Shown: positions 9,180 to 56,812 of the stretch, one piece after another
Position numbering within the stretch: the stretch's first letter is position 1
Layout: every line of letters starts with the position of its first letter
IMG/VR virus record: IMGVR_UViG_2690315929_000005
Span: 1 to 64,000 of that record
Direction: 5' to 3' (one strand)
Source: an uncultured virus (IMG/VR IMGVR_UViG_2690315929_000005)
Lineage: Duplodnaviria > Heunggongvirae > Uroviricota > Caudoviricetes
Length of the DNA stretch: 64,000 nucleotides
The notes under the pieces: generated by a model
What the model saw: only the letters and a program-made list of their open reading frames with translations
The model's database searches: none
What the model was told of the DNA's origin: nothing
Program-made: the position numbers and the translations under genes

Positions 9180-9491
9180 TTATCTCGCCGTAACCCCGAA
9201 CTCACTGCTCGGCTGTTTTGTTTTAACTCCTGAAAATACTGCTACATTAGGTAAGCAACAGTTATCTCCACTTGGATAATGCTTTGTTGGTTTGAGAGAG
9301 AGAACAGGGCGTTCTGGTTTCTCTTTCACTGAGTTAGCTTTAGCAATCTCTTCTTCTTTCAGTTTGTTAGCTCTGAAAGATGCATATCTAGCATATTGCC
9401 TAGCCTTGAATGAGTTACTGTTAACTTTCTTAACGCTAACTGGTGTTGGATTGCCTTTAAATTTCTTTGGTGGTTGATAGTAAATTTCCAC
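9180..9491 (-). CDS. N: Antitermination protein N-like
   Basis: First gene after pL and nutL; basic helix and C-terminal CLPNVAVF...TAR resembling N-family proteins. Confidence 0.7.
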   Translation of the reverse strand: MEIYYQPPKKFKGNPTPVSVKKVNSNSFKARQYARYASFRANKLKEEEIAKANSVKEKPERPVLSLKPTKHYPSGDNCCLPNVAVFSGVKTKQPSSEFGVTAR

Positions 9492-9714: not shown

Positions 9715-9727
9715 TTGTTAAAGAACA
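9715..9727 (-). promoter_or_regulatory. nutL boxA
   Basis: TGTTCTTTAACAA on the minus strand just downstream of pL. Confidence 0.7.
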
Positions 9728-11107: not shown

Positions 11108-11833
11108 TTAGCCGTGGAACTTATAGGTAATAGACTGGCTAACTAGCACCTTAGCGCATATATAAAGCCCATTAATAGCATCTTCGTCTAGATACCAAGT
11201 TTCATATCTAGGGTTGTCAGATATAACTGCTAGGCGCTTGTACTGTTTCTGCAATCGCTTTATGTAGAGCTGGTTATCCAATACGAACACATAAATCCCG
11301 TCACCATCAAAAAAGTTTGTGGTTATATCTACGAATATCTGATCCCTAGGTTCGAACGTTTCAGCCATCGAATCACCTTTTACAGTGATCATCTTTATCG
11401 TATTTGAAGGTCTGCCACCGAATAATCTTTTGGCTTCATCCGCCGAATACTCAATAGCCGTGATAGTCTCGATAAAATCATCGATAACCATCACGCCAGC
11501 ACCTGCGCTCGCTTCTACGTCTAGTATTTCAACCTTATAAGCATTACTAATACCACCCCCTTCATCCGAGTGCGTATCAGTACTTATGTTGCTGACTTCC
11601 GAACTATGGATAACAGGAATAGTTGGCTCTTCGCCATTACCAGACGACAACCATTCAGGAGAGACCCTCAGAACTTTAGCTATTTCTATTAATTTTGTTG
11701 AATTTTGTGCATTTCCAACCTCAATCTTTTGAATTGCAGCCTGTGATATACCAACAGCCTCGCCTAGTTCTTTTTGAGATAAGCCCGACAATTTACGAGC
11801 TTTTTTTAATCGTTGTGCAAGAGTAGTTTTCAT
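11108..11833 (-). CDS. cI: CI repressor (HTH plus S24 peptidase)
   Basis: XRE HTH, A-G cleavage site (ASAGAG), VKGDSM, IKRL. Confidence 0.95.
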   Translation of the reverse strand: MKTTLAQRLKKARKLSGLSQKELGEAVGISQAAIQKIEVGNAQNSTKLIEIAKVLRVSPEWLSSGNGEEPTIPVIHSSEVSNISTDTHSDEGGGISNAYKVEILDVEASAGAGVMVIDDFIETITAIEYSADEAKRLFGGRPSNTIKMITVKGDSMAETFEPRDQIFVDITTNFFDGDGIYVFVLDNQLYIKRLQKQYKRLAVISDNPRYETWYLDEDAINGLYICAKVLVSQSITYKFHG

Positions 11834-11845
11834 AGTCTTAAATAT

Positions 11846-11906
11846 ACAACCGCAGTTGTTGGCATTCAAACAAATATAGTTGTTGATTAAAAACAACTAA
11901 GGTTTT
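11846..11906. promoter_or_regulatory. OR operators with pR/pRM
   Basis: ACAACCGCAGTTGT, ACAAATATAGTTGT and ACAACTAAGGTTTT (434-like ACAA-N6-TTGT) between cI and cro. Confidence 0.8.
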
Positions 11907-11937: not shown

Positions 11938-12165
11938 ATGAACGAAGCAATTAAAACCGCCATTGATATTGTAGGGACACAAAAAAAACTAGGTGAAGCA
12001 TGTGGCATAACACAGCAAGCAGTTTTTAAGTGGCTACATAACAAGGCAAAAGTATCACCTGAGCATATCCCATTAATTGTTAAAGCTACAAACGGTCAAG
12101 TTAAAGGAAAAGATATTCGCCCTGACTTACCGCACTTATGGGATTTGGGTAATAAATACTGGTAA
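11938..12165 (+). CDS. cro: Cro-like repressor (YdaS family)
   Basis: GTQKKLGEACGITQQAVFKW...IRPDL; divergent from cI. Confidence 0.9.
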   Translation: MNEAIKTAIDIVGTQKKLGEACGITQQAVFKWLHNKAKVSPEHIPLIVKATNGQVKGKDIRPDLPHLWDLGNKYW

Positions 12166-12171
12166 CACAAT

Positions 12172-12183
12172 CGCTCTTTAAAA
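12172..12183 (+). promoter_or_regulatory. nutR boxA
   Basis: CGCTCTTTAAAA directly after cro. Confidence 0.8.
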
Positions 12184-12307
12184 ATTCATGCAGTGCCTTT
12201 TGACTTCAATCGGCAAATTATTATCAACAATCCGCTCATATGGAATGAGCTACGGATCATTACTGCTGTTCCCAATATGGGAAGTAATCTAAGAAGGAAT
12301 TTAACAA

Positions 12308-46591: not shown

Positions 46592-47803
46592 ATGAAGCTA
46601 ACAGCCAGACAAGTAGAGACTTCCAAGCCAAAAGAGAAAGCTTATAAACTTTCTGACGGAGGGGGCATGTATTTAGAAGTTGCTCCGAATGGTTCTAAGT
46701 ATTGGCGTATGAAATATAGATATGCTGGTAAAGAGAAAAGGCTGGCTTTAGGTGTATACCCATCAATATCACTCGCACAAGCTAGGGCGAAGAGAGAAGA
46801 AGCCAAGCGCATATTAGCGTTAGGTGATGATCCATCTTTAGTGAAGAAAGCAGAAAAGAGAGAGAAAGAATCTCAAGTAAATAATAGCTTTGAAAAAATT
46901 ACGCTTGAATGGCATGACTATAAAAAGCCGAATTGGTCAAAAGGTTATGCGGATGATTTACTAGAAGCCTTCCAGAAAGATATCTTTCCTTATATTGGTA
47001 AAGTTAGCATTACAGAAATTAAACCGTTAGATATGTTAGAAGTGCTTCGGAAGTTAGAAAAACGCGGTGTGTTGGATAAGCTTAAAAAGATAAGGCAGGC
47101 ATGTAACCAAGTATTCCGCTATGCAATTGTGACAGGACGGGCTGAGTATAATCCCGCATCAGAATTAGCCGGCGCACTGTCTACTCCAAAAGCTAAGCAT
47201 TTTCCTCACTTAAATGTGAATGAGTTACCTGAGTTTTTACAGGCACTATCTGTATGTAGTGGAAGTAAGATCACTCAGATTGCGACAAAGCTATTAATGA
47301 TAACAGGCGTTCGTACTATTGAGCTTAGAGCTGCTGAATGGTCAGAAATTGATTTTGATAAAGCTATTTGGGAAATTCCAAAAGAACGTATGAAAATGCG
47401 TCGCCCTCACATGGTGCCATTATCTACACAGGCCTTAGAATTATTCAAAGAAATACAAACCATAACAGGAAAGTTTAAGTATATCTTTCATGGTAGGAAT
47501 GATGCTTCTAAACCAATGAGTGAAGCGGCCATAAATCAGGTTATCAAGCGTATTGGTTATGATGGTAGAGCCACAGGTCACGGATTCAGACATACAATGA
47601 GCACCATCCTGCACGAACAAGGCTATAACACTGCATGGATTGAGACTCAACTTGCACACGTTGATAAAAACTCTATTCGTGGAACGTATAACCATGCTCA
47701 GTATATTGATGGCCGTAGAGAAATGCTTCAATGGTACGCTGATTATATGGATACTTTAGAGAGCGGGGATAATGTTGTCCACGGTAACTTTAAACGTGCT
47801 TAA
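46592..47803 (+). CDS. int: P4-family tyrosine integrase
   Basis: KLSDGGGMYL.V...GSKYWR.KYR, HGFRHTMST.L, QLAH, YNHA; GGGGGCAT arm-type repeats at 46541-46560. Confidence 0.96.
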   Translation: MKLTARQVETSKPKEKAYKLSDGGGMYLEVAPNGSKYWRMKYRYAGKEKRLALGVYPSISLAQARAKREEAKRILALGDDPSLVKKAEKREKESQVNNSFEKITLEWHDYKKPNWSKGYADDLLEAFQKDIFPYIGKVSITEIKPLDMLEVLRKLEKRGVLDKLKKIRQACNQVFRYAIVTGRAEYNPASELAGALSTPKAKHFPHLNVNELPEFLQALSVCSGSKITQIATKLLMITGVRTIELRAAEWSEIDFDKAIWEIPKERMKMRRPHMVPLSTQALELFKEIQTITGKFKYIFHGRNDASKPMSEAAINQVIKRIGYDGRATGHGFRHTMSTILHEQGYNTAWIETQLAHVDKNSIRGTYNHAQYIDGRREMLQWYADYMDTLESGDNVVHGNFKRA

Positions 47804-48077
47804 CCCACCAGCAGACACATACAGAACCAGACAATAAAAGGTCTGGTTTTTTTGTACCGAGAAAGGGCATTAATAATATTTAATCATTAAATGTATGATG
47901 TGGCTGAATTCTAACTAAGATGAGAAAAATCTTAATATACGCTTAAGAGTACACCCTAGTAGACGACAATAGACTATGCGAAGATGTGATAAATAAAACT
48001 GTTCGTTTCTTAAGCTTGACTGTTCATTATTACAGTATAATATACCTAGTAGTACCGCAGTAGATCATTGTGGACTT

Positions 48078-48830
48078 CGCTCTTTAACACCTCTGCGCTG
48101 AAAAACGCGATATGTTCTTTAACAACGATGATGGCGAGCTGTGTGTTAGTCATCAGAACGGTGGCGCTGATAAAGCGACCAATGCTCTTTTACAAATTCG
48201 GGTATGCCCAGAGTAAATTCTCAGGGACAATCTGTCACGGTGGCGCTCTTGAAGCGCTGATATATGAATTTTTATCTGATTAGTAGCAGAACCAGCTTGT
48301 AACAAATAAGGAACGCTCAGAGCAATTTCTCCGAGCATATAAGTTTTATTGATAATCTTTATATTAGATTATCAGCTCTTTAAAATATGGATTCCCCCTT
48401 GGGTTGTCTTGAGGGGGCTAATGATAACCTCATTAGCATGTTGATGACTTCTCAACATAAATAATATTTGTAGCAAAATATGTACTGATAGCTACTTGTT
48501 CTTTAAAAACTGACCTGCGCTCCTTGCAAATGGGAGCTTTTAGTAAACAACTTAATGATTTTGTTCTGTTTACTAAATATATGTAGTTCAGGTCGTTAAT
48601 GGCAATCAGCTAAATTGAATAATATAATTGTAACTATTCAAATTAGTAAATTGTTCTTTGAAATTTAAGTCTCCGCCTTTGTGGAGTGTAGTTCTGTTCT
48701 TTAAAACTTATTTCGCTCCTGCATCAGGAGCAAAGCTCATATCTATATCAATGGAAATATTATCTTATCAAATATTCATTAATTATAGTTATGTTCTTTT
48801 CAAGGCTCTATGCACAGGCAGTGAGCACAA
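48078..48830 (+). repeat. Array of about 8 boxA+hairpin (nut-like) units in the non-coding leader of the alpA operon
   Basis: boxA-like sites at 48078, 48113, 48183, 48374, 48497, 48652, 48695 and 48792, each followed by a different stem-loop. Confidence 0.7.
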
Positions 48831-48983
48831 ATCAGTTTATTATTGAGATTGTTTTATTTTAAACAACAAGCCCCCACTCAAAAAACACCTTAAAATATAA
48901 ACCATAATATGCGTTATTAACCTTATACATTTATGTATAGGGTTTTTTCGCATGTCTTTTCATATCACATTAAGGAAAATACT

Positions 48984-49181
48984 ATGAATAATCTGATTAG
49001 GCTTTCAGAGGTTTTGCGACGCACAGGTTACAGCAAAGCTTGGATTTATAGACTAATTAAAGAAAATGACTTTCCTAAACAAGTCAAAATAGGAGCTCGT
49101 TCTATTGCTTTTGTTGAATCAGAAGTAGATGAATGGATTGCTAATAAGATTGCTGAATCACGTTCTGGTGAGGTGGCATAA
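48984..49181 (+). CDS. alpA: AlpA-family regulator/excisionase
   Basis: LIRLSEVLRRTGYSKAWIYRLI....FPKQVKIG.RSIAFVESEVDEWI. Confidence 0.93.
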   Translation: MNNLIRLSEVLRRTGYSKAWIYRLIKENDFPKQVKIGARSIAFVESEVDEWIANKIAESRSGEVA

Positions 49182-49576
49182 TGAAAAAGAAAAACCACCC
49201 ATCACAGGTGGCTTCTCAGAATAACGTAGCGTCGTCTATTCTATCAAAGAACCCACCTAAAAAACACCGTGCCCGTTTATATATGTTAGGTACTGGCATT
49301 AATGGCTTTACCGAGAATGAAATATTAATTCATTGCCGTTTATCGTCAGGCCGTAATTACCCAAATGAATTAGAGCGTTTATTGAATATCGAACTAGAAC
49401 GCATTGATGAGCCTAATCCTGATGGTATCGGATCACATTATCGTTACCGCTTTAAAACGGCTCAAGATGTGCAGAAGGTTATTAACTTAATAAATAAACG
49501 TGCTGAACAAGGTAATTACCAACCCATAGATAACGCACTCATAAATAATATTTTAAGCCTGTACCCGACAAAATAA
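49181..49576 (+). CDS. Hypothetical satellite protein
   Basis: Coupled to alpA. Confidence 0.7.
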   Translation: MKKKNHPSQVASQNNVASSILSKNPPKKHRARLYMLGTGINGFTENEILIHCRLSSGRNYPNELERLLNIELERIDEPNPDGIGSHYRYRFKTAQDVQKVINLINKRAEQGNYQPIDNALINNILSLYPTK

Positions 49577-49588
49577 CGGAATAAAAAA

Positions 49589-50422
49589 ATGAAACTAAAA
49601 AATAACAGCTTAAATGCTGGTGGATTCGCTCACCCTGAAAACCACTCTAGCGATATTAAGGAATTATCTTTTGCTGAAATGCTGCCAGTAATTCAGGGAA
49701 ATATTAACGGGCAGATTATTAATGCAGTAAGTGCCAAAGCATTACACGAAGCATTAAGTGTAGGTCGTGATTTTTCTACTTGGATTATTGGCCGTGTTAA
49801 TGAATACGCTTTTGTGGAAGGAACGGATTATCAATCAGATGATGACTTTAATATTCGCTGCTTACTTAATGAACAATATTCCCCCGTTTTGGGGAATAAT
49901 ACAAAACGTGGTCGCCCTGAAAAGGATTACTTATTAACGCTAGGCATGGCTAAAGAATTGGCAATGGTTGAACGTACCGAAAAAGGGCGCTTAATCCGGC
50001 AATACTTTATCAAGTGTGAGGAAGCTCTACACAAAGTCGCGCCAACAATCACTAAGCAGTTACGGCATCAACTTAAATCACGCCTCAAAGTGGCTAGTTA
50101 CTTTAAGCCGATGTGTTCAGCGTTAGAGCTAGCACGTATGGAGCAAGGCAAAAGCACACTACCGCACCACTACACAACTGAGTCAAACATGCTTAACCGA
50201 ATTGTGTTAGGTGGACTCACTGCCAAAGCATGGGCGAAGCAGAACGGCATTATTGGCAATCCCCGTGATGCTATGAGCGAAACCCAATTAGAGCACCTTT
50301 CATACCTTGAGCAGACGAATACAACGCTAATTGAATTAGGCATGGACTATCACGCACGCAAGGACAAGTTAATCAGTCTATCTCAAAAGTGGTTAGCGCA
50401 ACGTGTAGAGGTGGCGCAATGA
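49589..50422 (+). CDS. AntA/AntB antirepressor-like protein
   Basis: VSAKALH..L.VGRDFSTWI, DY.LTLGMAKELAMVER...G..IRQYFI.CE. Confidence 0.9.
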   Translation: MKLKNNSLNAGGFAHPENHSSDIKELSFAEMLPVIQGNINGQIINAVSAKALHEALSVGRDFSTWIIGRVNEYAFVEGTDYQSDDDFNIRCLLNEQYSPVLGNNTKRGRPEKDYLLTLGMAKELAMVERTEKGRLIRQYFIKCEEALHKVAPTITKQLRHQLKSRLKVASYFKPMCSALELARMEQGKSTLPHHYTTESNMLNRIVLGGLTAKAWAKQNGIIGNPRDAMSETQLEHLSYLEQTNTTLIELGMDYHARKDKLISLSQKWLAQRVEVAQ

Positions 50423-51360
50423 TTACCCTATGTTCAATAAAGGATATTGCCTACCAAGTGAATAATTCTCTACTGGCAGGTAATAACGTAAGTTCAACTT
50501 ACACCACGACTAATACGGTAGCTTTAAACTATGGTATTACGGGCAGTCAATCAGCGAAAATTTACGCCAATCAATCAATCCTAACCACCGTTGGAGGATG
50601 GGATAACAGCGATAACCTAAAACGTGGAGAATTTACACCATTTATTAAAGGTGATTTTTCTCACCTTTCTAAAGTCGGGAAATCTCGCTATTTATCGAGT
50701 GAAATTGAGTTTTTACAGTCCATAAAAAAGGGCGGCCAATCGGCTACCCTTGGGAACGTCGATATTAAATACCGAGCAAGTGAGAACTATAAGAATAGTA
50801 TTCATCTTGTTATCGGTAAAGATGACAACCTTGAGTTAATACAAAAATGTGCAATACATCACTTGCACTTATGGGTAATTGTTGGCTATAGTGATCAGGC
50901 ACTAGCAAAATCTAGTGTCAGGATTGGCGTTCTGAATTTGTACAAGGCGACACATGACGCGCCTAGCGTCTTTTTTTGTGTCAATGCCTACGCACACCTA
51001 TTAAATGCGGTATTATATCGCACCGAATCTATGGTGGCGGCAGCAGAGCAACCGAAAGGTTGGCTGGTTTCCTTGTACGCCAGTAACGCCAACTCTACTG
51101 TCGTCACCACCCCCGAAATTGGCGTTTCTGGTGGTGACTCCTTAGTATTGTACAAGGAGATCATCGTTATGATGGCAACCCCTACCCAAACTCAATTCAA
51201 ATTTTTGTTTCTGAGTATTAAACGTTCAGATACAACTGCTAAGCCTTGCCGTATCACTATTACCGCACCGAATGAACACGATGCAAGACTGATGCTTGTA
51301 CGTGATTATATCCTGTCATTCGCTGGTCGCTTACCTGTTAAGGAGGTGGCTCATGCGTAA
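50419..51360 (+). CDS. Ash-family long ORF spanning the c4 RNA and ending in icd
   Basis: GYS...AKS..RIGVLN, SMV....QPKGW.VS; in frame with icd. Confidence 0.6.
   Translation: MITLCSIKDIAYQVNNSLLAGNNVSSTYTTTNTVALNYGITGSQSAKIYANQSILTTVGGWDNSDNLKRGEFTPFIKGDFSHLSKVGKSRYLSSEIEFLQSIKKGGQSATLGNVDIKYRASENYKNSIHLVIGKDDNLELIQKCAIHHLHLWVIVGYSDQALAKSSVRIGVLNLYKATHDAPSVFFCVNAYAHLLNAVLYRTESMVAAAEQPKGWLVSLYASNANSTVVTTPEIGVSGGDSLVLYKEIIVMMATPTQTQFKFLFLSIKRSDTTAKPCRITITAPNEHDARLMLVRDYILSFAGRLPVKEVAHA
51031..51110 (+). ncRNA. C4/P4 CI-type antisense immunity RNA
   Basis: Multi-stem RNA whose CCTTGTAC and ACGCCAA are complementary to GTACAAGG/TTGGCGT upstream (50924, 50940) and downstream (51119, 51150 over the icd RBS). 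Confidence 0.85.
51169..51360 (+). CDS. icd: Icd-like host cell division inhibitor
   Basis: MATPTQTQFKFLF...A.NE.DAR..L.RDYILSFAGRLPV; RBS overlapped by a c4 target. Confidence 0.8.
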   Translation: MMATPTQTQFKFLFLSIKRSDTTAKPCRITITAPNEHDARLMLVRDYILSFAGRLPVKEVAHA

Positions 51361-53750: not shown

Positions 53751-54095
53751 ATGATAACGAAGAATTTTAAAGTTAATTCACTAGCGAATAGCTACGCAGC
53801 TGCTATTTACCACGATATTACCACACGTAATGGCGGTGATTGGTTTTCGATGAAGGTAGGCAACAAAACGATTGAAGTTGCCATTATTGACGGTGTGAAA
53901 GGTATTCGAATGCTCGTTGATAGCTATTTGCTGAAAGCCTTAAAAGGGCAATATCCCACATGGGAGGCAGTTGCTATTGGCTTGATAGAGCAATGTGTCA
54001 TTAATGGATATGTCACAGGTTATGGTCGAGAGGTGTGGCAAAGCATGATTAATGATATGGGCGACTCTTTCGCTGATAAGGGGGCGTTTCAATGA
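53751..54095 (+). CDS. Hypothetical satellite protein
   Basis: ORF directly before the primase. Confidence 0.65.
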   Translation: MITKNFKVNSLANSYAAAIYHDITTRNGGDWFSMKVGNKTIEVAIIDGVKGIRMLVDSYLLKALKGQYPTWEAVAIGLIEQCVINGYVTGYGREVWQSMINDMGDSFADKGAFQ

Positions 54096-56812
54096 AGCCG
54101 ATTGATGTTATCCGTGAGGTGAAGCTGAAAGCTAACGGACAATGGCAAGCTATATTATCTCACCTTGGGGCAGAAGTGCCCCTAAACACGCACACGGCTT
54201 GCCCTCATTGTGGTGGTAAAGACCGGTTTAGATTTGATAACAAGGACGGTAATGGCACGTTTATTTGTAATCAGTGCGGTTCTGGTGATGGATTAGATCT
54301 CGTTCAGCGTGTGTTAGGTGTCAGTGTAACCGAAGCTGCAAAAGAAGTTGCTAACATAATTGGTATTGATACCCGTTCAGCGTGTCCACCAGCCTACCGT
54401 CGTTCTGAGATAAAAGCACAACAAGACGAACTGAAAGCGCAGCAAGCCGAAAAACAAGCTAACGAGAAGAGAGAGAAGCATAAACGCTTTATTGAACGGT
54501 ATAACCGCACTATTGCCAATGTTCAACGTGGGAGATCTGACTATCTCAAGGCTAAGGGGCTGCATGGTTTTGAAATGGATTTATTACAGGACGGTTCTCT
54601 TATCATTCCATTATTGGACGCTGGTGGCGTTATTACTGGCGCACAAACTATTAAGCCTAATGGTGATAAGCGTTTGCTGTCAGATAGCGCAAAGTCAGGC
54701 AGTTATTACCCCATCAATGAGCCTGTAAACGTCTCTACGGTGATTATCGCTGAAGGATTAGCAACCGCCCTAACGTGTCACTTAATCCAACCAGAAGCGC
54801 ACACAGTTGCGGCAATTGATGCGGGAAACCTCATTCATGTAGCTAAGGTAATGCGAGTTAAGTATCCAGAGAGCAAGATTATTATTGCTGGGGATAACGA
54901 TATTAAGCCAGGCCAAGACAATACAGGGAAATTAGCGGCAGAAAAGGCAGCTAAGGTGGTTAATGGTGTCGCTGTTTTACCCCCTACTGATGATAAAGCC
55001 GATTGGGATGACTACCGCCTATCACACGGTATTGAGGCGGCAAGACAGGCATTTAATGAAATATTAGAGCAGCAAGGAGGCAAGGTGATGATAGAAACTA
55101 GGGTAAGCAATGAAGTCGTTAAACCTGACCCAATGAAGCCACGCATTGAATCACGTAAAGAGGGGGTATTTCTTGTTACACCGAAAGCCGACAAGGAAAC
55201 AGGGGAAATCATCAATCATGAGCAGTGGTTATCAAATGCTATCAAGCGGATCACTAAAGGTGTTAATGACCTCAATCAAGAGTATTTGATTATTGAGTGG
55301 GGGAATAACAATGTTCAGGCAATACCGACAGGCGATATAGGAGAGCGTGAAGGATGGCGCACATTAAAAAACGCGGGGTTATTTGTCACTACCAAATCAG
55401 GATTAAGACAGTCGTTTTCTGATTGGCTGTTACGTCAACCATTCAAAGAGGACTGGAGTATTACGAATAAATCAGGTTGGCACAAAGGCGCATATATCAT
55501 GCCCGATGGTTCAATTATCGGCACACCTGAACAACCGATATTTTTTAACGGACAAAGCGCAGCAGCAACTGCCTACAAAGCAAGTGGAACGGTGGAAAGC
55601 TGGCGAAATGATGTAGCGCGATTGGCTAACGGTAATAGTTTTATGATGTTTACGATTGGCGCCGCATTATCTGCACCGATGACGAGTCTTACGGGGGCTG
55701 ACAGCTTTGGTATTCACATTTACGCTCAATCGACAGCAGGGAAAAGTACCACGGCAGATATGGCCGTGAGTTTATACGGTGATCCTGATTTACAGCGCTT
55801 AACATGGTATGGCACTGAATACGGTATGACTAACGAAGCTGTAGCGCACAATGACGGACTTTTGTATTTGGATGAAGTCGGACAAGGGGCAGACCCTAAA
55901 CACGTCTACAAATCGGCTTACACGCTGTTTAATGGTAAAGGTAAGATCCAAGGTGCGAAGGAGGGCGGCAATAGGCAAGTTCAAAGCTGGCGGACAGTGG
56001 CCATTAGTACAGGAGAAAAGGATATTGAGACCTTTTTATTAAGTTCGGGTGTGAAAGTCAATGCAGGGCAGCTAGTACGATTACTCAACATCCCTATTGA
56101 ACGCGCCACTGAACTACATGAATGTGAAACAGGGAAAGCCCACGCAGATTTAATTAAGATAAATTGCCGTTCTAGCTATGGGGCCGCAGGACGTTATTGG
56201 ATTGAATATCTATCAAATCATAAAGATGAAGCTAAAGAAGCCTATAGAACTGCACAACAACGCTGGAGTAAATTAATTCCGAGCAGTTACGGAGAACAAG
56301 TTCATCGAGCCAGTGATCGATTCGCTACTATAGAAGCGGCTTTGATAATGGGCCGTGTGATTACTGGCTGGAATGAACAAGATTGTAAGGATGCTGTTCA
56401 AGCCGCGTTTAACGCTTGGATTGCTGAGTTCGGCACAGGTAATAAAGAGATTGAACAGATTAAAGATCAGACGATCGCTTTTTTAAGTACGTATGGAATG
56501 AGTCGATTTGCTCCATTGCCTTATGATGAGCAATCTTTACCTATCAGAGAACTTGCAGGGTACAGAGTTAAATCAAACACGCAGGATGAAGCGCCCATAT
56601 TATTTTATACATTGCCAACAGTATTTAAGAACGAGATAGCCAAAACGTTCAATACGGACACTTTCGCTGATGCCCTGCATAAACTAGGTATTTTAAAAAA
56701 GCCTTCCAATGGGAAAGGATATCAAGGCAGAACACCGCGTTTGAAACATTTAGGCAACATTCAGCAACGCGCCTATATTTTGATGCTTGTTCCTGATGAA
56801 GAGGAGGAGTGA
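54092..56812 (+). CDS. Primase-helicase (Zn-binding, TOPRIM, DUF927)
   Basis: CPHCGGKDRFR...C.QCG.GDG, EG.ATA, AGDND, STAGKST, LDE. Confidence 0.93.
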   Translation: MKPIDVIREVKLKANGQWQAILSHLGAEVPLNTHTACPHCGGKDRFRFDNKDGNGTFICNQCGSGDGLDLVQRVLGVSVTEAAKEVANIIGIDTRSACPPAYRRSEIKAQQDELKAQQAEKQANEKREKHKRFIERYNRTIANVQRGRSDYLKAKGLHGFEMDLLQDGSLIIPLLDAGGVITGAQTIKPNGDKRLLSDSAKSGSYYPINEPVNVSTVIIAEGLATALTCHLIQPEAHTVAAIDAGNLIHVAKVMRVKYPESKIIIAGDNDIKPGQDNTGKLAAEKAAKVVNGVAVLPPTDDKADWDDYRLSHGIEAARQAFNEILEQQGGKVMIETRVSNEVVKPDPMKPRIESRKEGVFLVTPKADKETGEIINHEQWLSNAIKRITKGVNDLNQEYLIIEWGNNNVQAIPTGDIGEREGWRTLKNAGLFVTTKSGLRQSFSDWLLRQPFKEDWSITNKSGWHKGAYIMPDGSIIGTPEQPIFFNGQSAAATAYKASGTVESWRNDVARLANGNSFMMFTIGAALSAPMTSLTGADSFGIHIYAQSTAGKSTTADMAVSLYGDPDLQRLTWYGTEYGMTNEAVAHNDGLLYLDEVGQGADPKHVYKSAYTLFNGKGKIQGAKEGGNRQVQSWRTVAISTGEKDIETFLLSSGVKVNAGQLVRLLNIPIERATELHECETGKAHADLIKINCRSSYGAAGRYWIEYLSNHKDEAKEAYRTAQQRWSKLIPSSYGEQVHRASDRFATIEAALIMGRVITGWNEQDCKDAVQAAFNAWIAEFGTGNKEIEQIKDQTIAFLSTYGMSRFAPLPYDEQSLPIRELAGYRVKSNTQDEAPILFYTLPTVFKNEIAKTFNTDTFADALHKLGILKKPSNGKGYQGRTPRLKHLGNIQQRAYILMLVPDEEEE

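Follow-up and report, generated by a model that had tools for sequence, protein, structure and literature searches.

A tandem array of nut-like sites ahead of alpA in a phage satellite is a candidate RNA sensor of helper phages

The 64,000-nt DNA analyzed here (the window; positions 1 to 64,000 of IMG/VR record IMGVR_UViG_2690315929_000005, a provirus record of 69.6 kb) contains a lambda-like prophage, followed by two unrelated genes and then by a phage satellite. In the satellite, the 1.18-kb gap between the integrase gene int and the regulator gene alpA is occupied by nine tandem units on the + strand, each combining a boxA motif with a boxB-like hairpin, the components of the nut sites of lambda-like phages. 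Five of the nine units match nut sites of Morganellaceae phages, the array stands in a single orientation directly before alpA, its ends are conserved among relatives, and its interior is exchanged by whole units. From these features we infer that the gap is probably an antitermination sensor for several helper phages: their N proteins would bind the array, and RNA polymerase would then read through a putative terminator, T2, at which transcription would otherwise stop before reaching alpA.

An array of boxA motifs and hairpins in the int–alpA gap

The original prediction for this gap held that it lacks a credible gene and instead repeats eight boxA-like motifs on the + strand, each followed by a different stem-loop, and required the motifs to be more frequent than in shuffled sequence. 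The motifs were found where they had been placed, within 48079–48803 (725 nt) and on the + strand only, and all eight match GYTCTTTNNMA, the consensus of boxA elements bound by NusB/NusE. Their core is the same as that of phages lambda (CGCTCTTA) and P22 (CGCTCTTTAAC), for which the reference nut sites (lambda nutR and nutL, P22 nutL and nutR) were read out of the phage records. In the whole window, the consensus has 14 matches compared with 4.04 expected, and none of 100 shuffled windows contained that many (largest count, 11); 8 of the 14 form the cluster at 48079–48803. When dinucleotide shuffles were confined to 47804–48983, the mean number of matches was 0.047, the maximum was 2, and none of 2000 shuffles reached eight, which bears out the predicted excess at both scales. 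The open reading frames (ORFs) of the gap are small; those of 71 and 62 amino acids match no Pfam family and are missing from an 89%-identical relative (L004), in agreement with the claimed absence of a credible gene. An Rfam search of 47800–49000 at E-values up to 1 returned no rRNA and no other family, and, with alpA as the next gene, the region is not a leader of the rRNA type.

A hairpin follows each of the eight boxA motifs at a distance of 1–11 nt, and unit 2 contains an additional spacer hairpin, like phage nutL. The predicted stem-loops are thus present behind all eight motifs, although singly most of them are unremarkable compared with shuffled sequence, the standouts being unit 7 (3 of 200 shuffles), unit 6 (5 of 200) and a ninth unit with a decayed boxA (10 of 200), which was revealed at 48294–48336 by its match to a phage nutL of type B. 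Folded as a whole, the 941-nt leader gives z = −7.4 (0 of 20 shuffles).

Few relatives of the gap are available for comparison. Among 79 loci with related integrases, only L002 and L012 (~100% identical) and L004 (89%) share gap DNA; Providencia alcalifaciens (L283) and Proteus myxofaciens (L284) were added by an AlpA scan of species genomes, and the four-way alignment used here comprises the window, L004, L283 and L284.

All nine units lie on the + strand. Unit 1 (48078–48109) consists of boxA CGCTCTTTAACA and the hairpin GCGCTGAAAAACGCG, the lambda-boxB-like GAAAA hairpin of the original prediction, which is there but weak in the window and intact in L004 and L284. Unit 2 (48113–48180) comprises boxA TGTTCTTTAACA, the spacer hairpin, which contains two compensatory pairs, and a boxB with the loop GATAA; as had been claimed, its boxA site is shared with the nutL boxA of the window's own prophage at 9716–9727, the common sequence being 14 nt long (ATGTTCTTTAACAA). 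In unit 3 (48183–48258), boxA TGCTCTTTTACA is followed by two hairpins, at 48199–48234 and 48242–48258, a layout like that of nutL types B and H without a sequence match to any phage. In the ninth unit, the decayed boxA AGCTTGTAACAA precedes the hairpin GCTCAGAG-CAATTT-CTCCGAGC, the arms of which are invariant in four of four relatives. Unit 4 (48374–48417) pairs boxA AGCTCTTTAAAA with a 10-bp hairpin and is swapped for two other hairpins in L283 and L284. Unit 5 (48497–48541), present in three of four relatives, is terminator-like (T1), its boxA being followed by the hairpin GCTCCTTGCAAATGGGAGC and then by TTTT. Unit 6 (48652–48686) is composed of boxA TGTTCTTTGAAA and the hairpin CTCCGC-CTTT-GTGGAG, and unit 7 (48695–48731) of boxA TGTTCTTTAAAA and the hairpin GCTCCT-GCATC-AGGAGC. 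The imperfect hairpin that follows boxA TGTTCTTTTCAA in unit 8 (48792–48826) is further decayed in L283 and L284. Separately from these units, a hairpin with no boxA before it, GTTGATGACTTCTCAACA at 48433–48458, lies between unit 4 and unit 5 and is retained by each of the four Morganellaceae relatives.

Units of the array match phage nut sites

When the int–alpA gap was compared with 50,697 phage records, the sole significant match was that of unit 2 to Morganella phage IME1369_01, with 85.5% identity over 62 nt. The matching segment is flanked on one side by a PL-like promoter, which has a palindromic operator, and on the other by an N ORF, the product of which has an arginine-rich N-terminus and scores 32.1 bits against Pfam N_peptide (cut-off 27.9). 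Given this position, the segment represents the nutL of IME1369_01, with boxA, spacer hairpin and GATAA boxB.

Next, 80 loci encoding relatives of the N protein of the window's prophage were surveyed, boxA-led segments upstream of N were sorted into types, and the 50 nt after boxA were aligned with the leader, 200 dinucleotide shuffles serving as the control. The IME1369_01 nutL aligned to 48134–48177 (0 of 200 shuffles), types B and B2 aligned to 48306–48337, that is, to the ninth unit (0 of 200), and type C, also located upstream of N homologues, matched unit 1 at 14 of 15 nt (1 of 200). Types D to H from these 80 loci had no match to the leader. Upstream of N homologues, almost every nutL type has a common hairpin with a T-run (ACCACTGAGTGGTTTTTGGG) just after boxB, ~45–65 nt after the nutL boxA (L243, L238, L274 and other N loci); this possible terminator or processing site does not occur in the satellite array.

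For unit 7, viral contigs were searched exactly for a boxA with the unit 7 hairpin or a same-loop variant. The 23 stretches obtained comprise 3 satellites, 5 chance matches and 15 loci at the nutR position, directly after the end of a cro-like gene and before cII-like genes; in 14 of these 15 prophage loci, cI-, cro- or cII-like genes lie within 1.5 kb. The nutR boxB of prophage locus L392 is identical to the unit 7 hairpin (17/17), and the same loop on another stem, GCACAT-GCATC-GTGTGC, serves as the nutR boxB of 14 prophage loci and also occurs as a unit in L004 and L283. A scan of the same kind for unit 6 returned 7 stretches, 3 of them in satellites and 4 in prophage loci at the nutR position, where the boxB after boxA is identical to the unit 6 hairpin (16/16); two of the four loci follow a cro-like gene, and the other two lie next to cI-like genes, behind the point at which an open frame stops. 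A blastn search of 48372–48840 against isolate phages, at E-values up to 10, yielded only noise.

Thus, five of the nine units (units 1, 2, 6, 7 and the ninth) match nut sites that lie beside N or cro in Morganellaceae phages, between an early promoter and N or after cro, and the predicted library of different nut sites gains support from actual phage nut sites, beyond mere resemblance. The array appears, by these alignments, to have acquired its nut sites from several N-specificity groups of Morganellaceae phages or to have them in common with such groups.

The phage loci also revealed exchange at nutR itself. In L376, L379, L384, L385 and L390, cro is 96–97% identical to cro of the window's prophage, and the sequence differs just after the nutR boxA (window 12172–12260); these loci have the nutR boxB GCACATGCATCGTGTGC, and none is recognizable in the window's prophage. 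The near-identical cro followed by different sequence beyond boxA indicates a mosaic joint inside nutR.

Conserved ends and a variable interior

The two ends of the array are conserved, with the promoter and the first 75 nt almost invariant and likewise the last 100 nt, which include T2 and the alpA ribosome site. The middle varies by whole units: unit 2 is missing in L283, unit 5 in L284, and unit 7 in L004 and L284. This is the pattern that the original prediction had anticipated for related int–alpA intervals, with boxA kept and whole units gained or lost. The order promoter, array, T2, alpA is kept across Morganellaceae genera. In the named hairpins, 92% of cells are paired, compared with 36–51% with slid partners, and five pairs, one of them in the T2 stem, change on both sides, compared with 0–2 in slid controls, which for four sequences amounts to modest support.

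The promoter-like site TTGACT-16-TAATAT of the leader–alpA transcript (48016–48043, + strand) is present as predicted and scores 9/12. It is invariant in three of four relatives, with one change in the second hexamer in L284, and derives its weight from this conservation. T2 (48919–48950, + strand), the proposed regulated terminator, is an 11-bp hairpin with a six-U run that ends 33 nt before the alpA start. Its fold has z = −4.7 (0 of 200 shuffles), and it is near-invariant in four of four relatives, with one compensatory change from an A-U to a G-C pair. No credible promoter was found between T2 and alpA. An internal promoter-like site at 48599–48628 was considered and rejected; it is not conserved, and a 15-nt deletion in L004 removes its second hexamer.

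Repeats of the TAGTAGAC type flank the leader promoter at 47957–47985 and 48046–48070 and recur just after int in L003, L005, L009, L011, L014, L036, L042 and L072. In many relatives, their reverse complement, GTCTACTA, is part of the loop of a hairpin located immediately ahead of the alpA ribosome site. These repeats could be binding sites for AlpA or the integrase.

Metatranscriptome contigs over the leader

A metatranscriptome contig of a variant of the array spans 48063–49191, beginning immediately behind the promoter and ending shortly past alpA, at a depth of 105 compared with 2.6 downstream and 0 upstream; such contigs neither locate the ends of an RNA nor rule out DNA as their source. 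In place of unit 2, the variant has 74 other letters. Run X3 gave contigs only over 47990–48246 and 48725–48885. Run X22 yielded no reads, and coverage in run X1 was even everywhere, so that neither run is a test of expression. A second X1 contig has 48112–48169 in common with unit 2, and its upstream part is like the PL region of IME1369_01, which indicates that the same strain holds a prophage with a nutL nearly identical to unit 2.

Arrays in other satellites

Among 71 int–alpA intervals, 11 contain at least two strict boxA motifs on the + strand, none on the − strand and no open frame above 76 codons. In 55 intervals, the slot is occupied by a + strand open frame of 200 codons or more, and 5 have neither ORF nor array. 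The slot ORFs of relatives (L003–L078) contain DUF6387 in 10 of the 39 tested, and a conserved leader hairpin (gctatgcctaggctgatccccgaaaac...ggcatagc) stands ahead of many of them. Their identification as known defence genes was rejected, with matches in PADLOC for 0 of 39.

In E. coli-type satellites, the arrays contain the exact lambda nutR boxB and the exact P22 nutL boxB, and in the 573 kb examined all 11 occurrences of these two 15-mers lie on the + strand at the int–alpA position. Part or all of one E. coli array was found in 663 of 5426 complete E. coli genomes, with the full array in 32. A 45-nt piece of this array also matches an O157:H7 prophage ~480 nt upstream of an annotated antitermination protein. 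In a scan of viral contigs for two boxA motifs 20–50 nt apart, the loci fetched among the matches listed were chance or coding repeats, none of them with alpA. Arrays arose again in E. coli and Enterobacter satellites, and nut arrays thus recur as the solution of a minority.

EcCIMP1 of E. coli MP1 is a satellite of this kind. Its 427-nt int–alpA gap contains three boxA motifs and four or five boxB-like hairpins, the loops of which include a lambda-like one (CCCTGGAGAAGGG), one with GAAA, one that is P22-like (TCGCTGACAAAGCGC, a single base off P22 nutL) and one of six bases, CTAATA, in the hairpin CACGC-CTAATA-GCGTG. A blastn search of this array against isolate phages, at E-values up to 0.1, gave no match. 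According to PMC11773190, an alpA-lux fusion covering −449 to +50 was induced by mitomycin C in Kapi1 lysogens and not in non-lysogens, and it was still induced, less strongly, without alpA. Given its span, this reporter includes the whole array. The terms antitermination, nut and terminators have 0 occurrences in that paper. Phage Kapi1 has an N-like gene (Kapi1_020) next to cI, and its nutL and nutR hairpin loops read CTAACC.

A model for helper sensing and its alternatives

The int–alpA gap would be the untranslated leader of the alpA operon, acting as an RNA sensor of helper phages. Transcription would start from the promoter-like site at 48016–48043 and run through the nine tandem units, each offering a boxA as a NusB/NusE site and a differing boxB. 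In the absence of a phage, the transcript would end at T2 before reaching alpA, perhaps with further stop points at the terminator-like unit 5 and, through Rho, in a G-poor stretch at ~48850–48900. Upon induction of, or infection by, a lambda-like phage, the immediate-early N protein would bind the boxB fitting its arginine-rich motif and, together with the host Nus factors, render RNA polymerase resistant to termination. Read-through would then allow transcription of alpA, and AlpA would boost its own promoter and start the satellite cycle. Many boxB types would permit a response to many phage groups, with the units exchanged like cassettes.

Several observations weigh against this model. The search against Morganellaceae nutL and nutR regions, successful for five units, left the other four (units 3, 4, 5 and 8) without a phage counterpart: in exact viral-contig scans, the hairpins of units 3, 4 and 5 were found behind a boxA only in three satellite records, and unit 8 had no phage match. 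The unit 1 hairpin has a folding energy of only −3.3 kcal/mol in the window, and 84 of 200 shuffles fold equally well. The nutL and nutR of the adjoining prophage have the boxA alone in common with the array and no boxB, and 179 of 200 shuffles score as well against the leader as this nutL (type A) does. The proposed promoter is one of 10 such matches in 1.6 kb, with 5.5 expected, so that the scan alone does not place it above chance; an X3 contig begins at 47990, upstream of the proposed −35 element; and T2 was not flagged by a simple terminator scan. Arrays are present in only 3 of 80 species-level alpA loci, all on the + strand and none on the − strand. EcCICFT073 is induced by lambda and phage 80, and PMC6092414 gives the phage inducer of its alpA as unknown in 2018. 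Its int–alpA gap contains no boxA and no boxB, and no array was found at any of the eight AlpA-like loci of CFT073, which rules the mechanism out as a general one for satellites of this type. For EcCIMP1, the Kapi1 loops CTAACC are similar, not identical, to the satellite loop CTAATA.

The RNA could alternatively act as a decoy, which the original prediction had offered as its second option. The leader would soak up phage N and/or NusB/NusE and throttle the delayed-early transcription of lambda-like phages, as helper interference or defence, with read-through to alpA arising as a by-product or as an additional function of the leader. Each RNA would carry eight or nine boxA motifs that follow the strong rRNA-like consensus, which is consistent with such a role; boxA over-transcribed from a plasmid was reportedly found around 1990 to inhibit lambda N function through competition for NusB. 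The array also occupies the slot that holds a variable cargo ORF in 55 of 71 relatives, and the leader RNA may exist without induction, as the X3 contigs cover parts of the leader only. Yet a decoy has no need of a cis, co-oriented place directly before a terminator and alpA, and 11 of 11 array intervals are so placed; none of the 39 cargo ORFs tested from the slot is a known defence gene by PADLOC; N is abundant, and the decoy would have to outcompete it from a single gene copy; and a full block of N would also block the late genes that the satellite needs. A decoy thus fits the RNA but not its strict position in cis, which makes it unlikely as the main function, and it may be an added effect.

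Two further explanations assign no role to N. In one, boxA would recruit NusB/NusE and rRNA-type factors that shield a long leader from Rho; Rho would have access to 900 nt of untranslated leader, the boxA motifs conform to the rRNA-like consensus, and arrays occur only where the slot lacks a translated ORF (no open frame above 76 codons in 11 of 11). We nevertheless consider host factors alone an improbable explanation, since a single boxA should suffice for them, nine units of differing specificity and the turnover of units would be left without a reason, as would the identity or near-identity of hairpins to the boxB of particular phages, and alpA expression would become constitutive. The other explanation regards the array as inert debris of recombination with phage early regions, or as protein sites at the DNA level, with no function in RNA. 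It can point to decay in the boxA of the ninth unit, in unit 8 (L283 and L284) and in the unit 1 stem of the window. That this is the whole story is very improbable, given that only minimal nut modules are present, in a single orientation and with no flanking phage genes, that stems covary while loops are kept, with GCATC on two different stems in satellites and phages alike, and that the architecture is kept across Morganellaceae genera and originated repeatedly and independently in E. coli and Enterobacter satellites.

Genes of the satellite and the adjoining prophage

The satellite integrase (46592–47803, + strand) is a tyrosine recombinase with an arm-binding domain (Pfam Phage_int_M, Phage_integrase and Arm-DNA-bind_3), and its regulator gene alpA (48984–49181, + strand) encodes a Phage_AlpA domain (7e-21); the activator role of AlpA is taken from PMC6092414 and PMC11773190. 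The satellite was annotated up to 57 kb, in the order int, gap, alpA, an unnamed ORF, AntA, isrK and C4 RNAs, Ash, ORF6N and a DUF927/Toprim primase (54092–56812). With int, alpA and primase co-directional and no phage structural or lysis genes between them, it has the organization of a Gram-negative phage-inducible or P4-like island. The unnamed ORF (49181–49576; 131 amino acids) overlaps the alpA stop, has no Pfam match, contains the basic stretch PKKHRAR near its N-terminus and is conserved in E. coli satellites (L079 and EcCIMP1). In the E. coli relative L063, ~720 nt after int, the alpA frame stops after ~17 codons and is followed by unrelated sequence, which suggests an insertion into alpA. 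The isrK and C4 antisense RNAs, with Rfam scores of 65.7 and 71.9 bits, lie next to each other at 50899–51114, before the Ash domain, and look like a P1/P4-type RNA immunity module of the satellite; the ORF call that encloses them (50389–51360) is probably too long.

The prophage in the window encodes a cI-like repressor (11108–11896), cro (11938–12165) and an N homologue (9180–9491) with 35% identity to N of IME1369_01 (E = 5e-10), which scores 18.4 bits against Pfam N_peptide, below the cut-off.

Relation to known systems and significance

Like the nut sites of lambda, P22 and IME1369_01, the units of the array place boxB within ~5–13 nt of boxA, and in the proposed transcript they would be promoter-proximal and upstream of terminators. 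In contrast to lambda-like phages, whose early transcripts each have a single nut fitted to the phage's own N, the satellite has nine tandem units with different boxB types ahead of a regulator gene and no N gene. With rRNA leaders, which are arranged as boxB-boxA-boxC and use host Nus factors only, it shares boxA motifs of the strong consensus (TGYTCTTTAACA) and the alternation of hairpins with boxA; it differs from them in its many copies, its phage-specific hairpins and the lack of an rRNA gene. EcCIMP1, whose helper is Kapi1, has the same gene order (int, gap, alpA, hypothetical, AntA, Ash/Icd), with a shorter array and boxB types of E. coli phages.

The Nun protein of phage HK022 binds the nut RNA of another phage and stops its transcription, and is similarly a case of an element exploiting the lambda-like boxB RNA code for its own benefit. 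Nun is a protein, whereas in the satellite the nut RNA itself would be borrowed. Helper sensing by SaPI satellites, in which a phage protein binds the Stl repressor (introduction of PMC6092414), likewise couples the satellite cycle to an early product of the helper. In the satellite described here, however, an RNA would take the role of receiver, and the cycle would be switched on by reading through a terminator rather than by removal of a repressor protein. Literature searches, confined to sources outside subscription journals and bioRxiv supplements, turned up no account of nut sites, boxA or antitermination in satellites of this type.

Among Gram-negative phage-inducible islands, EcCICFT073 had an inducer that was still being sought in 2018 (PMC6092414), and the 2025 EcCIMP1 paper (PMC11773190) describes helper-dependent induction of alpA without a mechanism. 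A nut array ahead of alpA offers a concrete and directly testable mechanism for one class of islands. If the model is correct, this would be the first satellite with processive antitermination as its wake-up signal, RNA and not a repressor protein would read phage identity, and the array would be a natural record, of multiple specificity, of the N-protein classes circulating in a host family. Such arrays could guide the grouping of boxB/N specificities in little-studied phages and provide portable phage-responsive switches. In its broadest form, to which we give an even chance, the proposal is that an evolvable cassette library of nut sites serves as a multi-channel RNA receiver through which many unrelated lambda-like helpers would wake one satellite. 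This would supply the missing helper-sensing mechanism for a subset of Gram-negative islands, including EcCIMP1, and after satellite replication the leader RNA may also restrain the helper by depleting N and Nus factors.

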